A stretch of DNA of 64,000 bases from Kiritimatiellia bacterium. Its GTDB lineage: Bacteria > Verrucomicrobiota > Kiritimatiellia > RFP12 > UBA1067. Location of the stretch: contig JBJEWD010000056.1 in NCBI GenBank assembly GCA_051884875.1, forward strand, positions 23,223 through 87,222, in the 5' to 3' direction. Below the pieces are notes generated by a model. That model saw nothing but the letters and a program-made list of their open reading frames with translations. It was not told the origin of the DNA and made no database searches. The position numbers and the translations under genes are program-made. Of this stretch, positions 7,343-59,031 are shown piece by piece. Numbering within the stretch: position 1 is the stretch's first letter; the number at the start of each line of letters is the position of its first letter.

Positions 7343-9544
7343 GTGCTGGGTTACCTGTTGGCCATGCTGGCGGTGACGAACATGCCGCCGCCGTATTACA
7401 CGGTGTATGCCGAGGCGGTGGGTGCGCCGCTGGCGAAGCAGATCGAATTCCTGGCGATGCCGCAGCGCGAGAACGTTCGCGCGAATTCGACCTACGTCAA
7501 CACGCGGCGCTATCTGCTCGGGCCGGACAATCCGGGTTTCGTGGTGACGCCCGACGGCAGCGGACTAGGCGCACACGGCACGATCAGCATGGCGGCGCTG
7601 GAAGTTCAGGCGGCGACGACCGAGAACGCCGCCGAAGCCGCACGTTGCCGTACGCTCGCGCAATGGCTCGCGCATCCGCAGGGCGAGAGTCCGCGTGCGC
7701 GGATCGTCGGGCAGACCCGATCCTCCCTCGCGCGGGCGGCCCGGATGCCGCATCCGCGCGTGTTTGCGACGGCGGCGGATTTCGCCGCGCTTGGGGAGCG
7801 TGCGAAGACGGACGCGCTGGTGAAGGCGGGTGTCGACCGCGTGCTGGCCGAAGCCGCGCGGTGGCGCGGCAGACCCGTATCGACGTACGAGTTGACGGGG
7901 TATCACCTGCTTGCCGTTTCGCGTCAGAGCATGTCGCGCTTGGTGTCGAATGCCTTTGCCTATCGCCTGACGGGAGAGCGGCAGTATGTCGACGATGCGG
8001 TATCGGAACTGCGGGCCGTCTGCGCATTCCCGGACTGGAATCCGCGCCACACGATCGATACGGGTGAGATGATGCTGGCGGTTGCGACGGCCTACGATTG
8101 GCTCCATGAAACGCTGCCGGACGACGTGCGTGAACAGGCGGCGCGCGCCCTCATCGAGAAGGGAATTTGCGCCGACGTGCCGAATGCCGGGTGGACGCGG
8201 CTTCAGAACAACTGGGTGCAGGTCGTCGCCGGCGGATTGACGGCCGCTGCGGTCGCGGTCGCCGATCGCGCGGCCGATTTGTGCGTGCCGTATCTTGTCG
8301 CCGTGGTCGAATCGCTACCCGAGGCGGAGTCGGTGTGCGGACCCGACGGTATCTTCCCCGAAGGGCCCGTCTACTGGAACTACGGCTGGAGCTTCAATGC
8401 GATTGCGCTTGATGTGATGCGGACGGCGTTCGGTGGCGACTTCGGGCTCTCCGACGTGCCGGGCGTTCGGGCGACGGGGCTTTATCCGGCGCAGGTGACG
8501 GGGCCGTCGGGCGATTGGTTCAACTACAGCGACTGCCATGGTTCGCGCGGCAGTTCGCCGGCGGTCTGGTGGTTCGCGCGGCGTTTCGGCGCTACGGCCG
8601 CCGTAACGGCGAATGAGGTCACCGCCTTGCGCGCAGTCTGTGCGGATTGCGCAAAACCCCTGGACCGGACCTTTCCGTTCACGCTCTTCTGGACGGGCGA
8701 TGATCTGGCGAAGGCCGCTTCACCGCTTCCGGATGTCTGGGTAGGACGGGGCGAGGTCCCGATTGGCGTTCTTCGGATGCCGTCGGGCGCCTATCTCGCC
8801 ATCAAGGGTGGTTCGCCCTCCTATAATCACGGACACGCCGATGCGGGCGGCTTCGTCCTGGACCTGCAGGGCGAGCGCTGGGGTTATGATCTCGGTGCCG
8901 AGAACTATCATGCGGTCGAACGGCACATCGGCCCGAGCGGCCTCTGGTCGCCCGAACCGGAATCCAAGCGCTGGTCGGTCTTCCGTCTCGGCACGCAGGG
9001 TCACAATACGCTTATGATCGGCGGCAAGGGACAGGACGCACGTGGATTTGCGCTCCTGACGCGCGCCGGTGAGACGGTCGTCGCCGATCTCTCGTCGATC
9101 TATCCGCAGGCGCGGCGGGTCGTCCGTACGGTGGCGCGTGGGCCGCAGGGATTTGCAATCACCGATGAAATTGAAGGGGCAGAGCCCGGGTCGTCCGTGC
9201 GCTGGGCGATGAACACCAACGCGCGAATTGGGATTGGCGCGGACGGTATGGTCACGCTCCGCAAAAACGGGAAATCCATCCGCCTGTTCGAGACGACGGG
9301 CGGCGGCGTCTGGTCGGAAGCTTCGGCGCAGCCGCCGAACGACTGGGAGTCGCCGAATCCGGGGATGCGTCAGCTCGTCTACACCGCGCCCGTGCCGCCA
9401 TCCGGCCGACTGGTGCTGTCCGTGCGATTCCAGGACGACGGGAACTCCTGCGCTCTTCCCGTCAATGCGTTCACCGACGTGGCAAAGAGGGAGGGGAGGA
9501 CGGCGCACGCGCCGGGTCTTCGGGCGTTTCCCCTTTTGCTATAA
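7343..9544 (+). CDS. Heparinase II/III-like polysaccharide lyase (DUF4962-type)
   Basis: HPR motif, NNW, EGPVYWNY, NHGHADAGGF and GHNTL motifs; RBS AGGAG before the GTG start. Confidence 0.8.
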   Translation: MLGYLLAMLAVTNMPPPYYTVYAEAVGAPLAKQIEFLAMPQRENVRANSTYVNTRRYLLGPDNPGFVVTPDGSGLGAHGTISMAALEVQAATTENAAEAARCRTLAQWLAHPQGESPRARIVGQTRSSLARAARMPHPRVFATAADFAALGERAKTDALVKAGVDRVLAEAARWRGRPVSTYELTGYHLLAVSRQSMSRLVSNAFAYRLTGERQYVDDAVSELRAVCAFPDWNPRHTIDTGEMMLAVATAYDWLHETLPDDVREQAARALIEKGICADVPNAGWTRLQNNWVQVVAGGLTAAAVAVADRAADLCVPYLVAVVESLPEAESVCGPDGIFPEGPVYWNYGWSFNAIALDVMRTAFGGDFGLSDVPGVRATGLYPAQVTGPSGDWFNYSDCHGSRGSSPAVWWFARRFGATAAVTANEVTALRAVCADCAKPLDRTFPFTLFWTGDDLAKAASPLPDVWVGRGEVPIGVLRMPSGAYLAIKGGSPSYNHGHADAGGFVLDLQGERWGYDLGAENYHAVERHIGPSGLWSPEPESKRWSVFRLGTQGHNTLMIGGKGQDARGFALLTRAGETVVADLSSIYPQARRVVRTVARGPQGFAITDEIEGAEPGSSVRWAMNTNARIGIGADGMVTLRKNGKSIRLFETTGGGVWSEASAQPPNDWESPNPGMRQLVYTAPVPPSGRLVLSVRFQDDGNSCALPVNAFTDVAKREGRTAHAPGLRAFPLLL

Positions 9545-9545
9545 T
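9537..9545 (+). promoter_or_regulatory. Extended -10 promoter (TGCTATAAT), probably leaderless mutY
   Basis: TGnTATAAT lies 6 nt before ATG 9552, with no room for an SD. Confidence 0.6.
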
Positions 9546-9551
9546 ACGGAC

Positions 9552-10475
9552 ATGACATCCGAGCTGAAACCCCTCATTACCTGGTACCGGCGCGCGAAGC
9601 GTCCGATGCCGTGGCGCCTGAAGGTTGAACCGTATGCCTGCTGGCTGTCGGAGATCATGCTGCAGCAGACGACCTACGAGCAGGCGTTGCCTTACTATAC
9701 CCGCTTCCGCGCGCGTTTCCCCGATGTCCACGCGCTCGCGGCGGCGGATGAGCAGGACGTGCTGAAGGCCTGGGAAGGGCTCGGCTACTACGCCCGCGCG
9801 CGCAATCTCCTCAAGGCCGCACGGCAGTTCGCGACGACGGGCTGGCCGACGACACTCGCGGACTGGCGGGCGGTGCCCGGCGTCGGGCCTTATACGGCGG
9901 CCGCCCTCGCGTCGGTCCTCGATGGTGTTGAAGTCTGTGTCGTCGATGGCAATGTCGCACGGGTCTTCGCCCGCTACTGGAAGCTGACGGACGACTTCCG
10001 GAAGCTGCCGCCGCGTGAACAGCTTGCCGAACGGCTGCGGCCACTGATGTGCGCAAGGCCTGGTGATTTCAATCAGGCGATGATGGAGCTGGGTGCGCTC
10101 ATCTGTACGCCGAAGAGTCCGCGGTGCGGCGACTGTCCCCTGCGCACGCGCTGTCTTGCCGCAGCCGATGGAACGCCGGAGGCTTATCCCGTACGGAAGG
10201 CAAGGAAGACGCCCCCCGTGCGACGACAGCAGGTGGTCATCGTGACGAGTGGCGACGGAAAGGTTCTCCTCGTCCGTCGCCGGGCGGATGGCCTTCTGGG
10301 CGGACTTTGGGATTTGCCGTCGGTCGAGCCGGCGGGCGAGCACGTGCAGACCTTCAGCCACTTCAAGCTCGAACTTTCGCTTCTTCGGGCGACGACGGAG
10401 GCTGCCTTCGTCAATCCGCGCGAAGTTCCCCTGACGACTGCCGCGCGCAAGGTGCTGCAAAACATTGCGGTTTGA
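9552..10475 (+). CDS. mutY: A/G-specific adenine glycosylase MutY
   Basis: WLSEIMLQQT, WEGLGYYARARNL, HhH PGVGPYTA, VDGNVARV, FeS motif CTPKSPRCGDCPLRTRC, C-terminal HVQTFSHF. The start is moved from the ORF-track 9228 to ATG 9552. Confidence 0.95.
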   Translation: MTSELKPLITWYRRAKRPMPWRLKVEPYACWLSEIMLQQTTYEQALPYYTRFRARFPDVHALAAADEQDVLKAWEGLGYYARARNLLKAARQFATTGWPTTLADWRAVPGVGPYTAAALASVLDGVEVCVVDGNVARVFARYWKLTDDFRKLPPREQLAERLRPLMCARPGDFNQAMMELGALICTPKSPRCGDCPLRTRCLAAADGTPEAYPVRKARKTPPVRRQQVVIVTSGDGKVLLVRRRADGLLGGLWDLPSVEPAGEHVQTFSHFKLELSLLRATTEAAFVNPREVPLTTAARKVLQNIAV

Positions 10476-10640
10476 GGGACCACCCGTTCGGGTGGCGGTT
10501 TGTAGTTTACTCGCCGCCGGTGAATCTAACTGGTTGGGGGCTTCCGCTACCGCACCAGTTACTTCCGAATGCCGCAGTTATCTTTTCTGGTGTAGAGGCG
10601 CTGACCCCTAAATTTCCGTCCGTTATGGGGCGTGGAAATG

Positions 10641-10649
10641 TGGTATAAT
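10641..10649 (+). promoter_or_regulatory. Extended -10 promoter (TGGTATAAT) upstream of the structured RNA
   Basis: Same TGnTATAAT motif as upstream of many genes in this window. Confidence 0.6.
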
Positions 10650-10654
10650 AAGCG

Positions 10655-10925
10655 GCGGAAGCGTTGAAATGCGCCCGGATGGCGGCAAGGCCGCTGGGAA
10701 CGGCGCAGGATAACGCATCAATATACCGGTCGTGCGGCAACGGCGGCCAGCTTCTCCACGGGGCGACTCGGAGCGAGAGGTGCGCGGGGTGGGCAACCTA
10801 ACCCGTGCAGCGTACGCAATCTTGCGTATTTGGCTTTGACAGAAAACGACCAAATTTCCAAACCGAAGCTGGATATGTGGGATGCGTCACGTGGTCATCA
10901 CGTGGCGTGTCTTCTATTTCTTTTG
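10655..10925 (+). ncRNA. Unassigned structured RNA / cis-regulatory leader
   Basis: Multiple stems whose non-Watson-Crick pairs are G-U on the + strand, three GNRA tetraloops (GCAA, GCGA, GCAA), a long-range AGCTTC/GAAGCT closure and a terminal terminator hairpin. Confidence 0.6.
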
Positions 10926-10928
10926 TTT
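10881..10928 (+). terminator. Intrinsic terminator-like hairpin
   Basis: 14-bp stem GATGCGTCACGTGG / TCACGTGGCGTGTC followed by T-rich TTCTATTTCTTTTGTTT. Confidence 0.6.
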
Positions 10929-11058
10929 CGGTTAAGGCGCTTGGTCGTGCCTCTGTCAGAACATTGATGTAGGAGCACGCCACTTCCTTTTTCGCGCCGG
11001 GTGGTCGGGCCATTGTCAGGGGGCGCGGAATGCAGAGGGTAGAAAAGGAGAGTGTGGC

Positions 11059-12588
11059 ATGAGACTGTTTAAGCAGTGTATTGTCTGTGACCGAAAGTTT
11101 ATCGGGATGATCAATAAAAATCATTACGATTTATATCATGATGCTCTGCTTGCATTGAAAAAAGGTACTCCGTTTGCTCGCGGTTTTGTATGCGAGGACT
11201 GTGCTCATGCTGCAGCGACTGTTAAATGTTCGGTCTGTGGAAAAAACAAAGATGATATTTTCTATCATGTATCAAGAGGTGATGTATCAGGAGGGCTTTC
11301 GCAATACCTGCGTGAATATCATTTGCGTGCCCAAAAACTGCTTAATGATATAGGATCTTCTTTCAGGATAAGCGCCAAGTCGGTCTTTGTCTGTGATGAT
11401 TGTTTAATCCAGGCGTTTAATCAGGCTAGAAGCACCGCCATCGAAAAAGTTGGACAACCTGATGATACAAAGCAGACATTGTGGCTCAATTATGGTTTGG
11501 TGACGGATTCTAAATGCTGTTGTAGATGTGGAAATGAAATTCGTGAGAATTACGCAAAATTGTTTCATGCGTTCGTTGATTTTTTCTTTGTACCGATTCA
11601 CGAAAATGACAGGTCTGGATATTCCGTATGGGAAGGTGCCCATGGATACCTATGCGATCCGAACGGCGAGGGGAGGAAAGAGTTTTTTCGCAAACAGCTC
11701 GAGGAATGTTATTTCTATGATAATTGTTCATCTCTTGGCGTTCGCAGAGAACATGAACACTGGTACACACAGTTTCGGAAGGTTGTGCAGCCTTTTCTCA
11801 AAGAGAAGGTGTTATGCAGAAATTGTTGTGCATATTTGATGTCTGACAAGTTCCGTCAGGATTATTTTCGTCGGTCAGAGCGAAAGTGGCTTGGATTTGG
11901 ATGCCAAAAAGACGATTCAATGCTTGGCTTCTCCAAACAAATAATTTTTGATAAAGTGGCGCTCGAACAGATGTCCGGGGCGGATGCTCTTCGCATCCTT
12001 AAGTCCGAGGCATGGGAGATGGGAGCCAATGGCATTGTCAATCTGACGCGAACGAATAATGGTTATGAAGTGCGTCTGGAACCTGACTGGTATTTGACGA
12101 GCAAACTATACGACTGGTCAGGCGTCCCTGTTTTTTGGAGGAAGGAGGGGTCTATCGGTAAGATTTATGGTAAGGTTATCGTAGATGGATCAAACATCGT
12201 TTTCGCCGATAAGAGTAAGCTGACCACTGGTCTATCAACATGTTTGAAAGGGCTTAAGTTACGTAAGTTAAAGAGTTTCGTTTTTCTTGACGCCAATATT
12301 TATCACAAGTTAGAGGAGTTGGAGAATGGGTCAAAGTATGTGAAGGAACTGAAGGGCCTAATTGAGAACGCCAAGGGGTCGATTGCCATTGTCCCTGCTG
12401 GAACTAGAGCAGATGATTTTATATTGAAGAAGGCAGACACTGATGGATGTCATGTTTTGTCAAACGACCGATATAAGCCGTATACTGAGCGATATCCTTG
12501 GATCAAACAAGATCGAGTACATAGATTTTCCTTTGTTGATGGTCGCCTGATGATTCCGGATTTCGATATTGACATAGAAAACAAGTGA
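11059..12588 (+). CDS. Multi-Zn-ribbon, YbjQ-like, Zc3h12a/NYN-type PIN ribonuclease
   Basis: Six CxxC pairs (CIVC, CEDC, CSVC, CDDC, CCRC, CRNC), an AWEMGANGIVNL YbjQ-like motif, and PIN motifs VIVDGSN, FLDAN, ADDFIL, LSNDRY. RBS AAGGAG; AT-richer than the flanks. Confidence 0.75.
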   Translation: MRLFKQCIVCDRKFIGMINKNHYDLYHDALLALKKGTPFARGFVCEDCAHAAATVKCSVCGKNKDDIFYHVSRGDVSGGLSQYLREYHLRAQKLLNDIGSSFRISAKSVFVCDDCLIQAFNQARSTAIEKVGQPDDTKQTLWLNYGLVTDSKCCCRCGNEIRENYAKLFHAFVDFFFVPIHENDRSGYSVWEGAHGYLCDPNGEGRKEFFRKQLEECYFYDNCSSLGVRREHEHWYTQFRKVVQPFLKEKVLCRNCCAYLMSDKFRQDYFRRSERKWLGFGCQKDDSMLGFSKQIIFDKVALEQMSGADALRILKSEAWEMGANGIVNLTRTNNGYEVRLEPDWYLTSKLYDWSGVPVFWRKEGSIGKIYGKVIVDGSNIVFADKSKLTTGLSTCLKGLKLRKLKSFVFLDANIYHKLEELENGSKYVKELKGLIENAKGSIAIVPAGTRADDFILKKADTDGCHVLSNDRYKPYTERYPWIKQDRVHRFSFVDGRLMIPDFDIDIENK

Positions 12589-12597
12589 GGTTCTATT

Positions 12598-12882
12598 ATG
12601 CATGGAACACAGACTACAAGAAGAAATCGAAAGTGGTATAAGCTAACAGATGAGTTGATTAAAAGGAGGATGAACGCTACAATGCATCCTCTTCAGATTG
12701 AATTGTCTGATCAGGAAATTAGGGAAATAGTGGGCAGCGTCGACAAAAGCGATCCGCTGCCACTCGATAATGAGTATGACCCGCTGAACAGTATCAGGAT
12801 CCGTGCTGAGTACGCTTCATTTTCTGTCCGTTATAAAAGTGATGCCGAACGAAACATAAAGGTCTTTACTGAAAAAATGTGA
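12598..12882 (+). CDS. Hypothetical protein (94 aa)
   Basis: ORF 9 nt after the PIN gene with GAGG upstream; no family recognised. Confidence 0.5.
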   Translation: MHGTQTTRRNRKWYKLTDELIKRRMNATMHPLQIELSDQEIREIVGSVDKSDPLPLDNEYDPLNSIRIRAEYASFSVRYKSDAERNIKVFTEKM

Positions 12883-12894
12883 TAGGGTCTATTT

Positions 12895-13059
12895 ATGCGG
12901 CTGAATATAAAATTACCCCCGTATATAGGAAAGCTGCAGAGGAGAGCGCCTGTCTTAGACGAAGATGTTGACGCGCTGCTCGTTCGAGGTGTTGATTATG
13001 TCTGGTATTGTCACAGGAAAGATATTTCAGTTAAAAAGCGTTGCAGGAGGCGGCAATGA
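12895..13059 (+). CDS. 54-aa RHH-like protein, absent from the ORF track, paralog of the downstream small protein
   Basis: Hand translation: MRLNIKLPPYIGKLQRRAPVLDEDVDALLVRGVDYVWYCHRKDISVKKRCRRRQ. Its TGA overlaps the next ATG (ATGA), and it aligns by eye with the 70-aa protein. Confidence 0.55.
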   Translation: MRLNIKLPPYIGKLQRRAPVLDEDVDALLVRGVDYVWYCHRKDISVKKRCRRRQ

Positions 13060-13255
13060 AACTGGAGCTCGAACTGTCCAAGACGGACGAACGGCGCTGG
13101 TGTCGTTTGGCGAGATACTGGGGCGACGATATTGATTTGCTGTTCGCCGCCGTGCTCGACGAGATGTGGCAGAAGTGCGGCAAGGATGTTGCCGCGCAGG
13201 AGCGGTTGCAGAAGCGCTTGAATGGCCGGGTGAAACAGGTCCGGACGGACTTGGG
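13032..13255 (+). repeat. 224-bp direct repeat, copy 1
   Basis: Matches 15272-15495 with 8 substitutions counted by hand. Confidence 0.95.
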
Positions 13256-13750: not shown

Positions 13751-13813
13751 ATGATGCTAAGGGCCTGGCATGTTCGGGCTTGCTCATTCGTGCCAGGTCC
13801 TTGTGGAATCCTT

Positions 13814-15124
13814 ATGATGAATAGAAGATTCGCAGTTTCGCCCGATACGATTCTAAAGTTTCCGACTGAAATCGCGACATATCATTCTGGCGATGACGTA
13901 GTTGTTGTTTCGCCCAAGGATGGAAATTGGCTCGTAATCACTGATCAGCAGGTCAAGCTCATTGAACAACTGATGCAGGGAAGATCGGTGGGGGTCGTTT
14001 TATCTGATAGTGACGACAAGAATGCCTGCTTGGCTTTACTAAAGCAAATCGTAGCGCGCAATTTCACAGACAGGGCATTGGTGGTTTCCGATCGAACGTC
14101 AACGGCCATGTTTTATCTTACATACGATTGCAACCTGCAATGTGAACATTGTTATATGTACGCGCAAAAGAGGCGTGGCGCGCCATTAACCGTTGCTGAA
14201 TATAGCGATATCTTTGCCTCTTTGCGAGGTGGTGGCGTCGATGAGGCGACATTCTCTGGTGGTGAGCCGTTGATGCGAAAAGATTTTTGGGAGATCATTA
14301 GCGCGTCTCATGAGAATGGATTGACTTCAAAAGTGTTTTCAAATGGTACCCTGTGGACTGATGCGGACATTGAGAATGCAAGGTCTCGCGAGATCAAGGT
14401 GCAGATTTCGATCGATGGGGTTGATGAGAGGTCGTCCTCAGCGGTCAGGGGTGTACATGCCTTTAAAAAGGCGAGATCGACTGCCGTGAAGCTGGCTAAG
14501 GCGGGTATAGAAGTCGAAGTAGCCACCACGCCTCTTATGACAAATATCGAGTTGATTGAGGCTGGTTATCGCGATTTTGTCAGAGAACTTCAGGATGAGA
14601 CGGAGGGGGCGATCAAGTTTAAGGTTTCGCTCAATTTGTTACCAGGCCGGAATGTTGGAAGGCTTTCATTGGACGAGAAGCGAGAATATGAACAGCGGGG
14701 AATTCGTCTGTACGCAATATCGAATCCAGGTGGAACGCAAATACCTTTTTTCGAAGAGTATAGAAATGGTCGAGGGCGCATTGCATGCGGACTAGGTAGA
14801 TTAGTGTTTTCTCCCGATGGATTTGCATATGTGTGTAGCCGAATCGATTCTTTCCCGCCGCTTGGGAATGTTAGGGATGTTGGCGTACCATTCTTGCTTG
14901 AAGTGGCGAGGAAACGTTTGGTCGCTGCGTCCGTAGACAATTCGATTCCATGTCGCGAATGCCCGCTGCGCCATATTTGCGGCGGAGGCTGTCGGGTCGA
15001 TCGGTTTGAGAAGGTGTCAAGTTCAGAACAATTCTTATCTGTGCACAAGCCATGCTCCGAGGGATATAAGGCCGCCTTGCTCAAAATGATGGTGCAAGCA
15101 ACGAAAGAATGTTATACGTGGTAG
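13814..15124 (+). CDS. Radical SAM/SPASM peptide maturase with N-terminal RRE-like domain
   Basis: CNLQCEHC, FSGGEPL, QISIDG and a 7-Cys SPASM domain (ACGLG..DG..YVC..CRECPLRHICGGGC..PC). An N-terminal extension of about 90 aa resembles a PqqD/RRE fold. Confidence 0.88.
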   Translation: MMNRRFAVSPDTILKFPTEIATYHSGDDVVVVSPKDGNWLVITDQQVKLIEQLMQGRSVGVVLSDSDDKNACLALLKQIVARNFTDRALVVSDRTSTAMFYLTYDCNLQCEHCYMYAQKRRGAPLTVAEYSDIFASLRGGGVDEATFSGGEPLMRKDFWEIISASHENGLTSKVFSNGTLWTDADIENARSREIKVQISIDGVDERSSSAVRGVHAFKKARSTAVKLAKAGIEVEVATTPLMTNIELIEAGYRDFVRELQDETEGAIKFKVSLNLLPGRNVGRLSLDEKREYEQRGIRLYAISNPGGTQIPFFEEYRNGRGRIACGLGRLVFSPDGFAYVCSRIDSFPPLGNVRDVGVPFLLEVARKRLVAASVDNSIPCRECPLRHICGGGCRVDRFEKVSSSEQFLSVHKPCSEGYKAALLKMMVQATKECYTW

Positions 15125-15271: not shown

Positions 15272-15495
15272 TAAAAAGCGTTGCAGGAGGCGGCAATGAA
15301 ACTGGAGCTCGAACTGTCCAAGACGGACGAACGGCGCTGGCGGCGTTTGGCGAGATACTGGGGCGACGACATTGATTTGCTGTTCGCCGCCGTGCTCGAC
15401 GAGATGTGGCAAAAGTGCGGCAAGGATGTTGCCGCGCAGGAGCGGTTGCAGCAGCGCTTGAATGGCCGGGTGAAACAGGCCCGGGCGGCCTTGGG
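15272..15495 (+). repeat. 224-bp direct repeat, copy 2
   Basis: Matches 13032-13255 at an offset of 2240 bp. Confidence 0.95.
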
Positions 15496-15517: not shown

Positions 15518-15708
15518 TTTTTTTTCTTTCAGGAGGGCCGCGCTCAAATAAAATTTCTTCTTTTCTGGTGTAGGGCGACAATCTAGATTCTTGCGCGTTG
15601 CGGTAATGCGATGAAAAGAGTATAATACCGCCCCATCCGCTCACTTGATAATCTCTCGGGCGGACAAACGGAACAAAACAGATAAACTCTAATGAAAGGC
15701 TCTGAATA

Positions 15709-58954: not shown

Positions 58955-59031
58955 GGGCGGTTAGCTCAGTTGGTTAGAGCAGGACCTTTACACGGTCAAG
59001 GTCGGGGGTTCGAGTCCCTCACCGCCCACCA
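58955..59031 (+). tRNA. tRNA-Val (TAC)
   Basis: GGGCGGT/ACCGCCC acceptor stem, D-arm TAGCTCAGTTGGTTAGAGC, anticodon loop TTTACAC, GGTTCGAGTCC, encoded CCA; TGATATAAT upstream. Confidence 0.96.

Follow-up and report, generated by a model that had tools for sequence, protein, structure and literature searches.

A structured leader upstream of a NYN ribonuclease gene

The 64,000-nt stretch of Kiritimatiellia DNA analysed here (the window; window position = position on contig C56 minus 23222) carries, downstream of a MutY-like ORF (9228–10475; Pfam HhH-GPD and NUDIX_4 on its 9546–10475 part) and upstream of a nuclease gene, a region in which the original prediction placed an unassigned structured RNA. 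The question raised by the locus is whether this RNA serves the adjoining nuclease, as its switch or as its antitoxin, or has a role that extends beyond it. The + strand of 10650–10925 folds to −117.7 kcal/mol, compared with a mean of −101.8 (sd 5.1) for shuffled sequences (z −3.11, 0/200 as good), whereas the − strand of the same segment gives z −0.58 with 51/200 shuffles as good, which bears out the predicted structured RNA and its strand. The RNA had been taken to measure ~270 nt and to end at 10925, but conservation and covarying helices run on to ~10992, and the leader in full extends over ~400 nt (10641–11058), comprising an extended −10 element, a variable 5′ domain, a ~185-nt core, a last hairpin and a ribosome-binding site:

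10641–10649, + strand: extended −10 promoter-like element, TGGTATAAT, read in the sequence
10661–10716, + strand: hairpin 1, in the MFE fold, lineage-specific
10726–10808, + strand: 'type A' 5′ domain with P2 (10726–10750), P3 (10751–10780) and Pv (10782–10808, GNRA loop 10793–10796)
10809–10992, + strand: conserved core, ~185 nt, in all family members (nhmmer, alignments)
10993–10998 × 11022–11027, + strand: last hairpin, variable, with a predicted extension that pairs the U-tract 10985–10991 with the Shine–Dalgarno region 11043–11049
11045–11050, + strand: Shine–Dalgarno sequence, followed by the ATG at 11059 that starts the cargo ORF
11059–12588, + strand: cargo ORF, 509 aa, 42% GC, with a C-terminal Zc3h12a-like NYN ribonuclease domain (PF11977 match, E 4.8e-10, residues 372–502)

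The promoter-like element that had been read upstream of the hairpins is found at 10641–10649, and the transcript probably starts near 10656. Across the family, TGnTAnWAT occurs in the 400 nt before the core at 51/112 loci, versus 7/112 on the opposite strand and 4.3 in shuffles; a two-hexamer sigma-70 scan of 10300–11300 called no promoter. A box starting GATCTTT follows the −10 element by ~20–60 nt in 49/112 loci (0/112 on the opposite strand), where a 5′ hairpin precedes it and a TTGACA-like word with a G-rich run frequently comes next (e.g. loci L056 and L141), and the window's own leader has merely a weak look-alike near 10663–10670. A strand of the core was considered as the partner of this box and discarded, as inspection by eye gave nothing beyond 4–7-bp matches to several strands and no sign that the box covaries with the core subfamily.

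Copies of the leader vary in their 5′ part. Hairpin 1 was correctly predicted to the extent that it appears in the MFE fold, but it is not conserved: it is found only in copies of the window's genome and in one close relative (L098), and the copy on contig C22 of the same genome is devoid of it. The three GNRA-capped stems that follow are, in contrast, retained with compensatory changes in 28 related leaders. The type A domain is common to ~30 loci, of which 28 were tested (alignment A5) after removal of one row duplicated over the span and one misaligned row; 90.9% of its cells are paired, compared with 42–46% when the partner strand is slid, 18 pairs are changed on both sides (3–7 when slid) and the covariation score is 0.314 (at most 0.109 when slid). 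Other family copies possess 5′ domains different from type A.

The leader represents a new RNA family whose logic, attenuation or switching in a leader, has known precedents. At the gathering threshold, the sole Rfam 15 match in the whole window is a tRNA at 58955–59028, and for 10400–11100 at E up to 10 only MEG3_2 is reported, a chance row of 13.2 bits against a gathering threshold of 60. A set of 15 diverse family loci (82,159 bases) likewise gives 0 Rfam matches, and ARAGORN finds no tmRNA, so that the RNA remains as unassigned as it had been judged by eye. Literature searches on Kiritimatiellia riboswitches and RNA motifs found no description of the leader.

Copies and distribution of the leader

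A search with 10640–10930 returns 7 matches in the window's own genome, with four further long copies of 84–86% identity and two partial ones, and the unit common to these copies extends from ~10610 to ~11010–11015. The leader is matched in 30/61 relatives, often several times per genome and up to 8 times, although the span shared with relatives is mostly just ~10810–11040. By BLAST, the core is present in 85/301 genomes of the order, 79/202 of the family and 53/109 of the genus. A pattern scan over one genome per species recovers at least 118 stretches, nearly all from Kiritimatiellae/Kiritimatiellia MAGs of animal or human gut, and the few matches with other taxon labels are read by us as binning noise. 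Some genomes carry two same-strand leaders close together, as at L050 (5079–5367 and 7483–7772, ~2.4 kb apart), L064 and L109.

An nhmmer search gave 158 rows from 154 loci, 139 of which span the core; 129 were retained after removal of near-duplicates, and omission of two truncated rows left the 127 sequences of alignment A3, in most of whose added sequences parts of 10937–10953 and 10976–10983 were fixed by the scan pattern. Two runs with a 0.04 word share yield only short contigs of relatives over 10707–10979; such contigs, as in the one RNA-labelled run, show neither transcript starts, ends nor strand, and so do not bear on transcription either way.

The core holds two mutually exclusive sets of covarying helices

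The helices of the core are:

10813–10828 (10813–10817/10824–10828), + strand: HA, hairpin TACGC/GCGTA, 5 pairs, 99.8% paired
10815–10837 × 10865–10886, + strand: HB, 22 bp with A10819 bulged, from the RNAalifold consensus
10846–10853 × 10941–10948, + strand: HC, long-range clamp with its 3′ strand beyond the T1 tail
10861–10868 × 10926–10933, + strand: HD, long-range clamp around T1 with its 3′ strand beyond the T1 tail
10879–10893 × 10899–10913, + strand: T1, 15 bp, with U-rich tail 10914–10928, from a terminator scan
10902–10913 × 10972–10983, + strand: HE, re-using the 3′ strand of T1, then U-tract 10984–10992
10935–10940 × 10947–10952, + strand: HF, hairpin enclosed by HE

These helices form a set X (HA, HC, HD and full T1) and a set Y (HB, the T1 apex, HE and HF), the latter being essentially the RNAalifold consensus. 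X and Y are exclusive, since HB takes the 5′ base of T1 and HE takes its 3′ strand. Both sets are nevertheless strongly conserved as helices over the 127 sequences. For X, 94.4% of cells are paired, compared with 28–55% when the 3′ partners are slid, and the covariation score of 0.321 (at most 0.110 when slid) is reached by 0/500 shuffles; for Y, 93.7% of cells are paired compared with 30–62%, and the score of 0.251 (at most 0.082) is likewise reached by 0/500 shuffles. HB and T1, and T1 and HE, share strands and both sets covary, as expected of an attenuator or expression platform.

The individual helices contribute differently to this signal. The HA stem, which competes with HB, is invariant and exhibits no covariation. 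In HB, 11/22 pairs are changed on both sides, and its occupation of the 5′ base of T1 makes HB a candidate antiterminator. HC shows two pair types alternating at three adjacent pairs and is 97–98% canonical, HD shows all four Watson–Crick pair types at four pairs, and the inverted repeat I1 coincides with this HC/HD clamp. Two-sided changes affect 8 pairs in T1 (94.9% paired) and 4 in HE (98.0% paired). A chain of linked changes connects 10821, 10881, 10911 and 10974 (C-G-C in 62 versus T-A-T in 19 sequences; G-C-G in 86 versus A-T-A in 13), many of which stem from one subfamily; the two-state covariation in HB, HC and HF also comes largely from few subfamilies, so that the independent events are fewer than the cell counts suggest. 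A local hairpin 10942–10953 × 10972–10982 was tried as the second terminator and replaced by HE, its lower stem being only 39–46% canonical. In some leader copies the HE 3′ strand is duplicated after the core, and the extra strand has a hairpin and U-tract of its own.

G-U cells far outnumber A-C cells in both sets (739 versus 40 in X, 809 versus 51 in Y), and this excess across the family fits an RNA made from the + strand, extending to the family the G-U mismatches that had been noted on the + strand of the window alone. A leader peptide was considered and rejected, given that indels in the variable 10837–10870 are not multiples of three (alignment A3, by eye).

The predicted switch survives in altered form. 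The terminator-like hairpin is called by the scan at 10879–10913 with its T-rich tail, and mutually exclusive pairings do exist around it, which points to an attenuator or switch logic; the conserved competitor, however, is HB and not the helix 10713–10719 × 10881–10887 that had been put forward, which is 82.9% paired in 6 sequences only, with no double changes. Three other pairings proposed from the window are not kept in the family: ATTTGG/CCAAAT is 63.9% paired across the 127 sequences and shows no compensatory change, and AGCTTC/GAAGCT and ATAT.CC/GGATAT are 69.1% and 54.4% paired in 30 sequences, in a region where covariation follows HB and the local P3 instead.

The balance between the folds shifts with transcript length

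The energies of X and Y were compared by constrained folding of all 127 sequences at growing transcript lengths. In transcripts that stop where HB is complete, Y is the better fold by a median of 8.3 kcal/mol (119/127 sequences). At the T1 tail, X is favoured by 2.9 kcal/mol (113/127), and on arrival of the HC 3′ strand by 18.0 kcal/mol (123/127), whereas at full length the median difference amounts to 1.1 kcal/mol, with X lower in 54 sequences and Y lower in 72. The alternation itself follows in part from the positions of the partner strands, an explanation that does not extend to the near balance seen at the T1 tail and for the full-length core. With the HB/T1 balance near zero, the outcome could plausibly be decided at this step by polymerase speed or by an effector stabilising HA or HB. 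The window's own copy has X as its MFE fold (−73.6, compared with −59.5 kcal/mol for Y), and the helices of X and Y could also partly coexist as pseudoknots rather than alternate.

T1 has the sequence hallmarks of an intrinsic terminator, a hairpin followed by a U-tract, and is predicted to terminate as such. The U content reaches 57% over the 14 nt that follow T1 and 67% over the 12 nt that follow HE, compared with 25% overall, and HE is followed by a run of at least four U in 110/127 sequences. Both U-rich tails double as helix strands, however, that of T1 in HD and that of HE in the extension of the last hairpin. As the U-tracts are paired in conserved helices, and HC/HD require sequence past the T1 tail, T1 and HE may not terminate at all. 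In the MFE fold of the segment from HE to the start codon, the U-tract is base-paired to the purines preceding that codon in 73 of the 78 loci with a core-to-ORF spacing of 45–95 nt; duplexes of the U-tract with the Shine–Dalgarno region average −11.9 kcal/mol for cognate, −10.1 for non-cognate and −8.2 for shuffled partners, so that this pairing is partly generic.

Such paired U-tracts would also be expected of a constitutive structural leader, a stable, possibly pseudoknotted fold or long HC–HD–T1 rod that acts as an mRNA stabiliser, as an RNase III-type processing site, or as an insulator that, together with masking of the Shine–Dalgarno sequence, keeps acquired genes low. X forms a nearly continuous hairpin from 10846 to 10948, and the analysis revealed neither an effector nor an aptamer-like core distinct from the platform, in line with this explanation. 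HB and HE, however, exclude T1 and yet covary and are 89–98% paired, and the X/Y energies are balanced to within ~1 kcal/mol at the median, a balance for which a static element has no need. A purely constitutive role thus appears unlikely.

The leader precedes genes of many unrelated families

A same-strand ORF (at least 60 aa, start within 330 nt of HE) follows the core in 123/127 copies, the other 4 being cut by contig ends. The distance from core to ORF has a median of 63 nt (quartiles 56 and 74) and falls within 45–95 nt in 78/123 cases, with ORFs that were called mechanically in GC-rich DNA. These 123 ORFs fall into 68 Pfam families, as judged from the first 380 aa at most, a span in which C-terminal NYN domains would be missed. 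The most frequent Pfam families and PADLOC models are:

Pfam: LRR_5 (BspA type) 15, LRR_8 13, A2M 5, FNIP 5, FGE-sulfatase 4, Flg_new 4, SNF2 4, ResIII 4, FRG 3, HsdM_N 2, PLDc_2 2, and others
PADLOC: HKD+Snf2 4, DrmD 4, ZorD-like 4, PDC-S15 3, DpdE 3, MTase_I 2, BrxH 2, DrmA 2

The variety of these products suggests a leader that serves accessory genes at large and is not tied to PIN/NYN nucleases. It also bears on the suggestion that the RNA is an antitoxin or cofactor of the adjoining PIN/NYN nuclease, in a manner resembling type III toxin–antitoxin systems. The order of promoter, RNA, terminator and nuclease in the window agrees with a type III layout, and this local order is the one feature shared with ToxI RNAs. 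Unlike these, the leader has no tandem repeats (TRF, 0 arrays in 10500–11100) and is present in multiple copies before unrelated genes, with no single toxin family downstream: the other 6 matches in the window's genome precede genes other than the nuclease, and it is LRR_5 that leads the 68 families. A specific link of the RNA to the PIN/NYN RNase is not supported, and an antitoxin role is very improbable. The NYN ORF, itself with no PADLOC hit, is low-GC cargo and not a specific partner of the leader RNA.

The same regularity of placement weighs on the possibility that the copies are discrete trans-acting small RNAs, either terminated at one of T1 and HE or released from the leader by processing, for which the position upstream of genes would be secondary. 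A layout of promoter, ~260–330-nt RNA and terminator-like hairpins would suit such RNAs, as would the sharp core boundaries of near-identical copies (see below), and the contigs of two relatives in the RNA-labelled run stop at 10917, although contig ends are not true ends. Against this, the copies keep a set orientation and distance relative to the next ORF (123/127, median 63 nt), the U-tract pairs with the Shine–Dalgarno region of the ORF itself, the covarying helices span the first terminator, and no promoter is conserved directly upstream of the core. A role in trans likewise appears unlikely.

A NusG paralogue of the RfaH/LoaP/UpxY type was examined as a protein partner of the leader and rejected. 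The second NusG-domain protein of the window's genome (G000:C20:74561–75067; 1228–1737 of locus L170, − strand; 169 aa) lies directly upstream of a UDP-sugar-dehydrogenase-like gene and resembles the specialised NusG paralogues of polysaccharide loci. Over the 109 genomes of the genus, such a paralogue is found in 25/53 genomes with the leader versus 26/56 without it, showing no association.

Probable exchange of the core between genomes, and the genomic island

The leader in the window opens a stretch of DNA with foreign traits, as GC drops to 43% at 11001–13000. The whole stretch is enclosed by an exact direct repeat:

10581–10595, + strand: left copy of the 15-nt repeat (C56:33803)
15559–15573, + strand: right copy of the 15-nt repeat (C56:38781)

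The repeat pair bounds ~4.98 kb between the mutY-like gene and a serC-like gene, an island that contains the leader, the NYN ORF, small ORFs and a radical-SAM gene. The island ORFs scanned yielded no integrase or transposase domain, and the element is absent within 1.5 kb of the mutY-like loci in 12 other genomes of the genus, to which serC is likewise not adjacent. The radical-SAM protein (13751–15124, + strand, 457 aa) is matched by the PADLOC prokaryotic-viperin models (E 2e-18, over the radical-SAM core only) and may be viperin-like or a generic radical-SAM enzyme. On either side of its ORF lies a 224-nt direct repeat (13032–13255 and 15272–15495, 96% identical), which occurs in two copies only in the genome and holds in each a 75-aa ORF with no family hit.

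A near-identical core at an unrelated locus is seen in L056 (genome G066, of another genus), where a 193-nt core is 98.7–99% identical, with homology confined to 10808–11038 and unrelated flanks. Among 8 near-identical pairs from different genomes, 6 start at 10808–10810 and all end within 10989–11045. We read these observations as leaders that travel with acquired genes, or are recombined onto them, with gene conversion limited to the shared core. A repeat of ~45–85 nt, 94–98% identical, is present at many contig ends of the window's genome (e.g. C56:1–86, C35:1–46, C4:21168–21212) and also just upstream of the leader in L056 (2559–2867), and is probably the end of a high-copy insertion sequence common to the genera.

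Sharing of this kind could also mean that the element acts as DNA, for example as an integration site or the border of a cassette, with a recombinase recognising the folded single strand. The core shared across genera, the common start of 6/8 pairs, a patchy distribution (53/109 genomes of the genus), the 15-nt repeat around the leader and island, and the foreign low-GC cargo directly downstream are all in keeping with a mobile or recombination module. However, the asymmetry of G-U over A-C fits RNA, the core is devoid of terminal inverted repeats, the island holds no integrase or transposase, none of the other 5 copies in this genome has a flanking direct repeat, and the sharp boundaries follow from gene conversion confined to the homologous part. 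A function at the DNA level is accordingly improbable. By the same token, the element does not behave as a MITE or IS-derived repeat, since it has no terminal inverted repeats and a flanking repeat exists only around the window's whole island. A tRNA/tmRNA-type integration target with its integrase was likewise rejected, there being no tmRNA and no integrase domain in the island ORFs scanned, as was a phage or plasmid vector for the leader, with 0 core hits in viral contigs and no match in PLSDB plasmids.

Comparison with known regulatory elements

Protein-dependent attenuators with three structures are known from the pyr operon (PyrR type), and related systems operate with TRAP, LicT/SacY RAT and ANTAR. 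The leader resembles the PyrR type in its nested exclusive structures, i.e. a small hairpin (HA), the antiterminator-like HB and the terminator T1, in its position 5′ of genes and in its several copies per genome, and the invariant HA stem is as expected for a binding site. It differs in that it has no sequence or Rfam relation to these attenuators, that its targets are unrelated accessory genes and not one pathway, that the 3′ strand of T1 is used again in a second terminator-like helix, and that T1 itself is spanned by a clamp. The c-di-GMP-I and c-di-GMP-II riboswitches occur in many copies before surface and adhesion genes, and the leader is likewise a multicopy cis element with alternative folds before surface-protein and other non-housekeeping genes; unlike them, it matches no Rfam riboswitch model even at E up to 10. 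Its conservation is also atypical for riboswitches, as the platform including the terminators is the most conserved part and the 5′ domain is variable.

Correia/CREE, ERIC and REP/BIME elements are transcribed, repeated intergenic elements that alter the expression of neighbouring genes, and with these the leader shares its repeated, intergenic and folded nature as well as near-identical copies at unrelated loci. In contrast to such elements, it has 1–8 matches per genome that always lie 5′ of an ORF at a fixed distance, and it lacks terminal inverted repeats and forms several helices with compensatory changes in place of a single palindrome. What is unusual in the leader is the combination of a conserved platform, a terminator strand used in two hairpins, a clamp over the first terminator and a regulon of unrelated genes.

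A model for co-transcriptional switching

A leader that stands before many unrelated genes and has two exclusive folds probably gates expression and is not a partner of the adjoining nuclease. Hence, we favour, with reasonable if incomplete confidence, the reading in which the RNA in the window represents one member of a family of 5′ leaders in gut Kiritimatiellia that act in cis and work as co-transcriptional attenuators or switches for accessory genes. On this model, the ~400-nt leader would be driven by an extended −10 type promoter. HA would fold first, and HB would displace it once the HB 3′ strand emerges, after which T1 would have to invade HB in competition for the shared strand. If the polymerase moves past T1, the HC/HD clamp would lock T1 and thereby withhold the strand needed by HE and its U-tract. 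Were HB to persist, HE could form beside its U-tract as a second terminator-like helix, and the U-tract of HE could also mask the ribosome-binding site. An effector, be it a small molecule, a protein or the speed of the polymerase, would bias the choice of fold and in this way gate surface-protein and defence genes.

A more far-reaching form of the attenuator reading, which we hold as a tentative possibility, is that of a lineage-wide RNA 'gatekeeper': an undescribed class of ligand- or protein-responsive leaders, recombined before horizontally acquired surface-protein and defence genes. These leaders would act by a folding relay, in which two terminators would depend on one shared strand and the clamp would form only once the first terminator is passed. 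With a gatekeeper of this type, the flexible genes of gut Kiritimatiellia as a whole would answer to a single shared signal at the RNA level.

If the attenuator reading holds, the leader would constitute a new orphan regulatory RNA family with an identifiable effector, and its terminator-like helices on a shared strand, with both folds visible in the covariation, would offer a clean model for co-transcriptional RNA folding. Foreign genes would come under host control by placement behind a conserved leader. Finally, an uncultured and common gut lineage would steer dozens of unrelated accessory genes, among them giant LRR adhesin-like proteins, restriction–modification genes, helicase/PLD-type defence genes and nucleases, by means of one portable RNA module.
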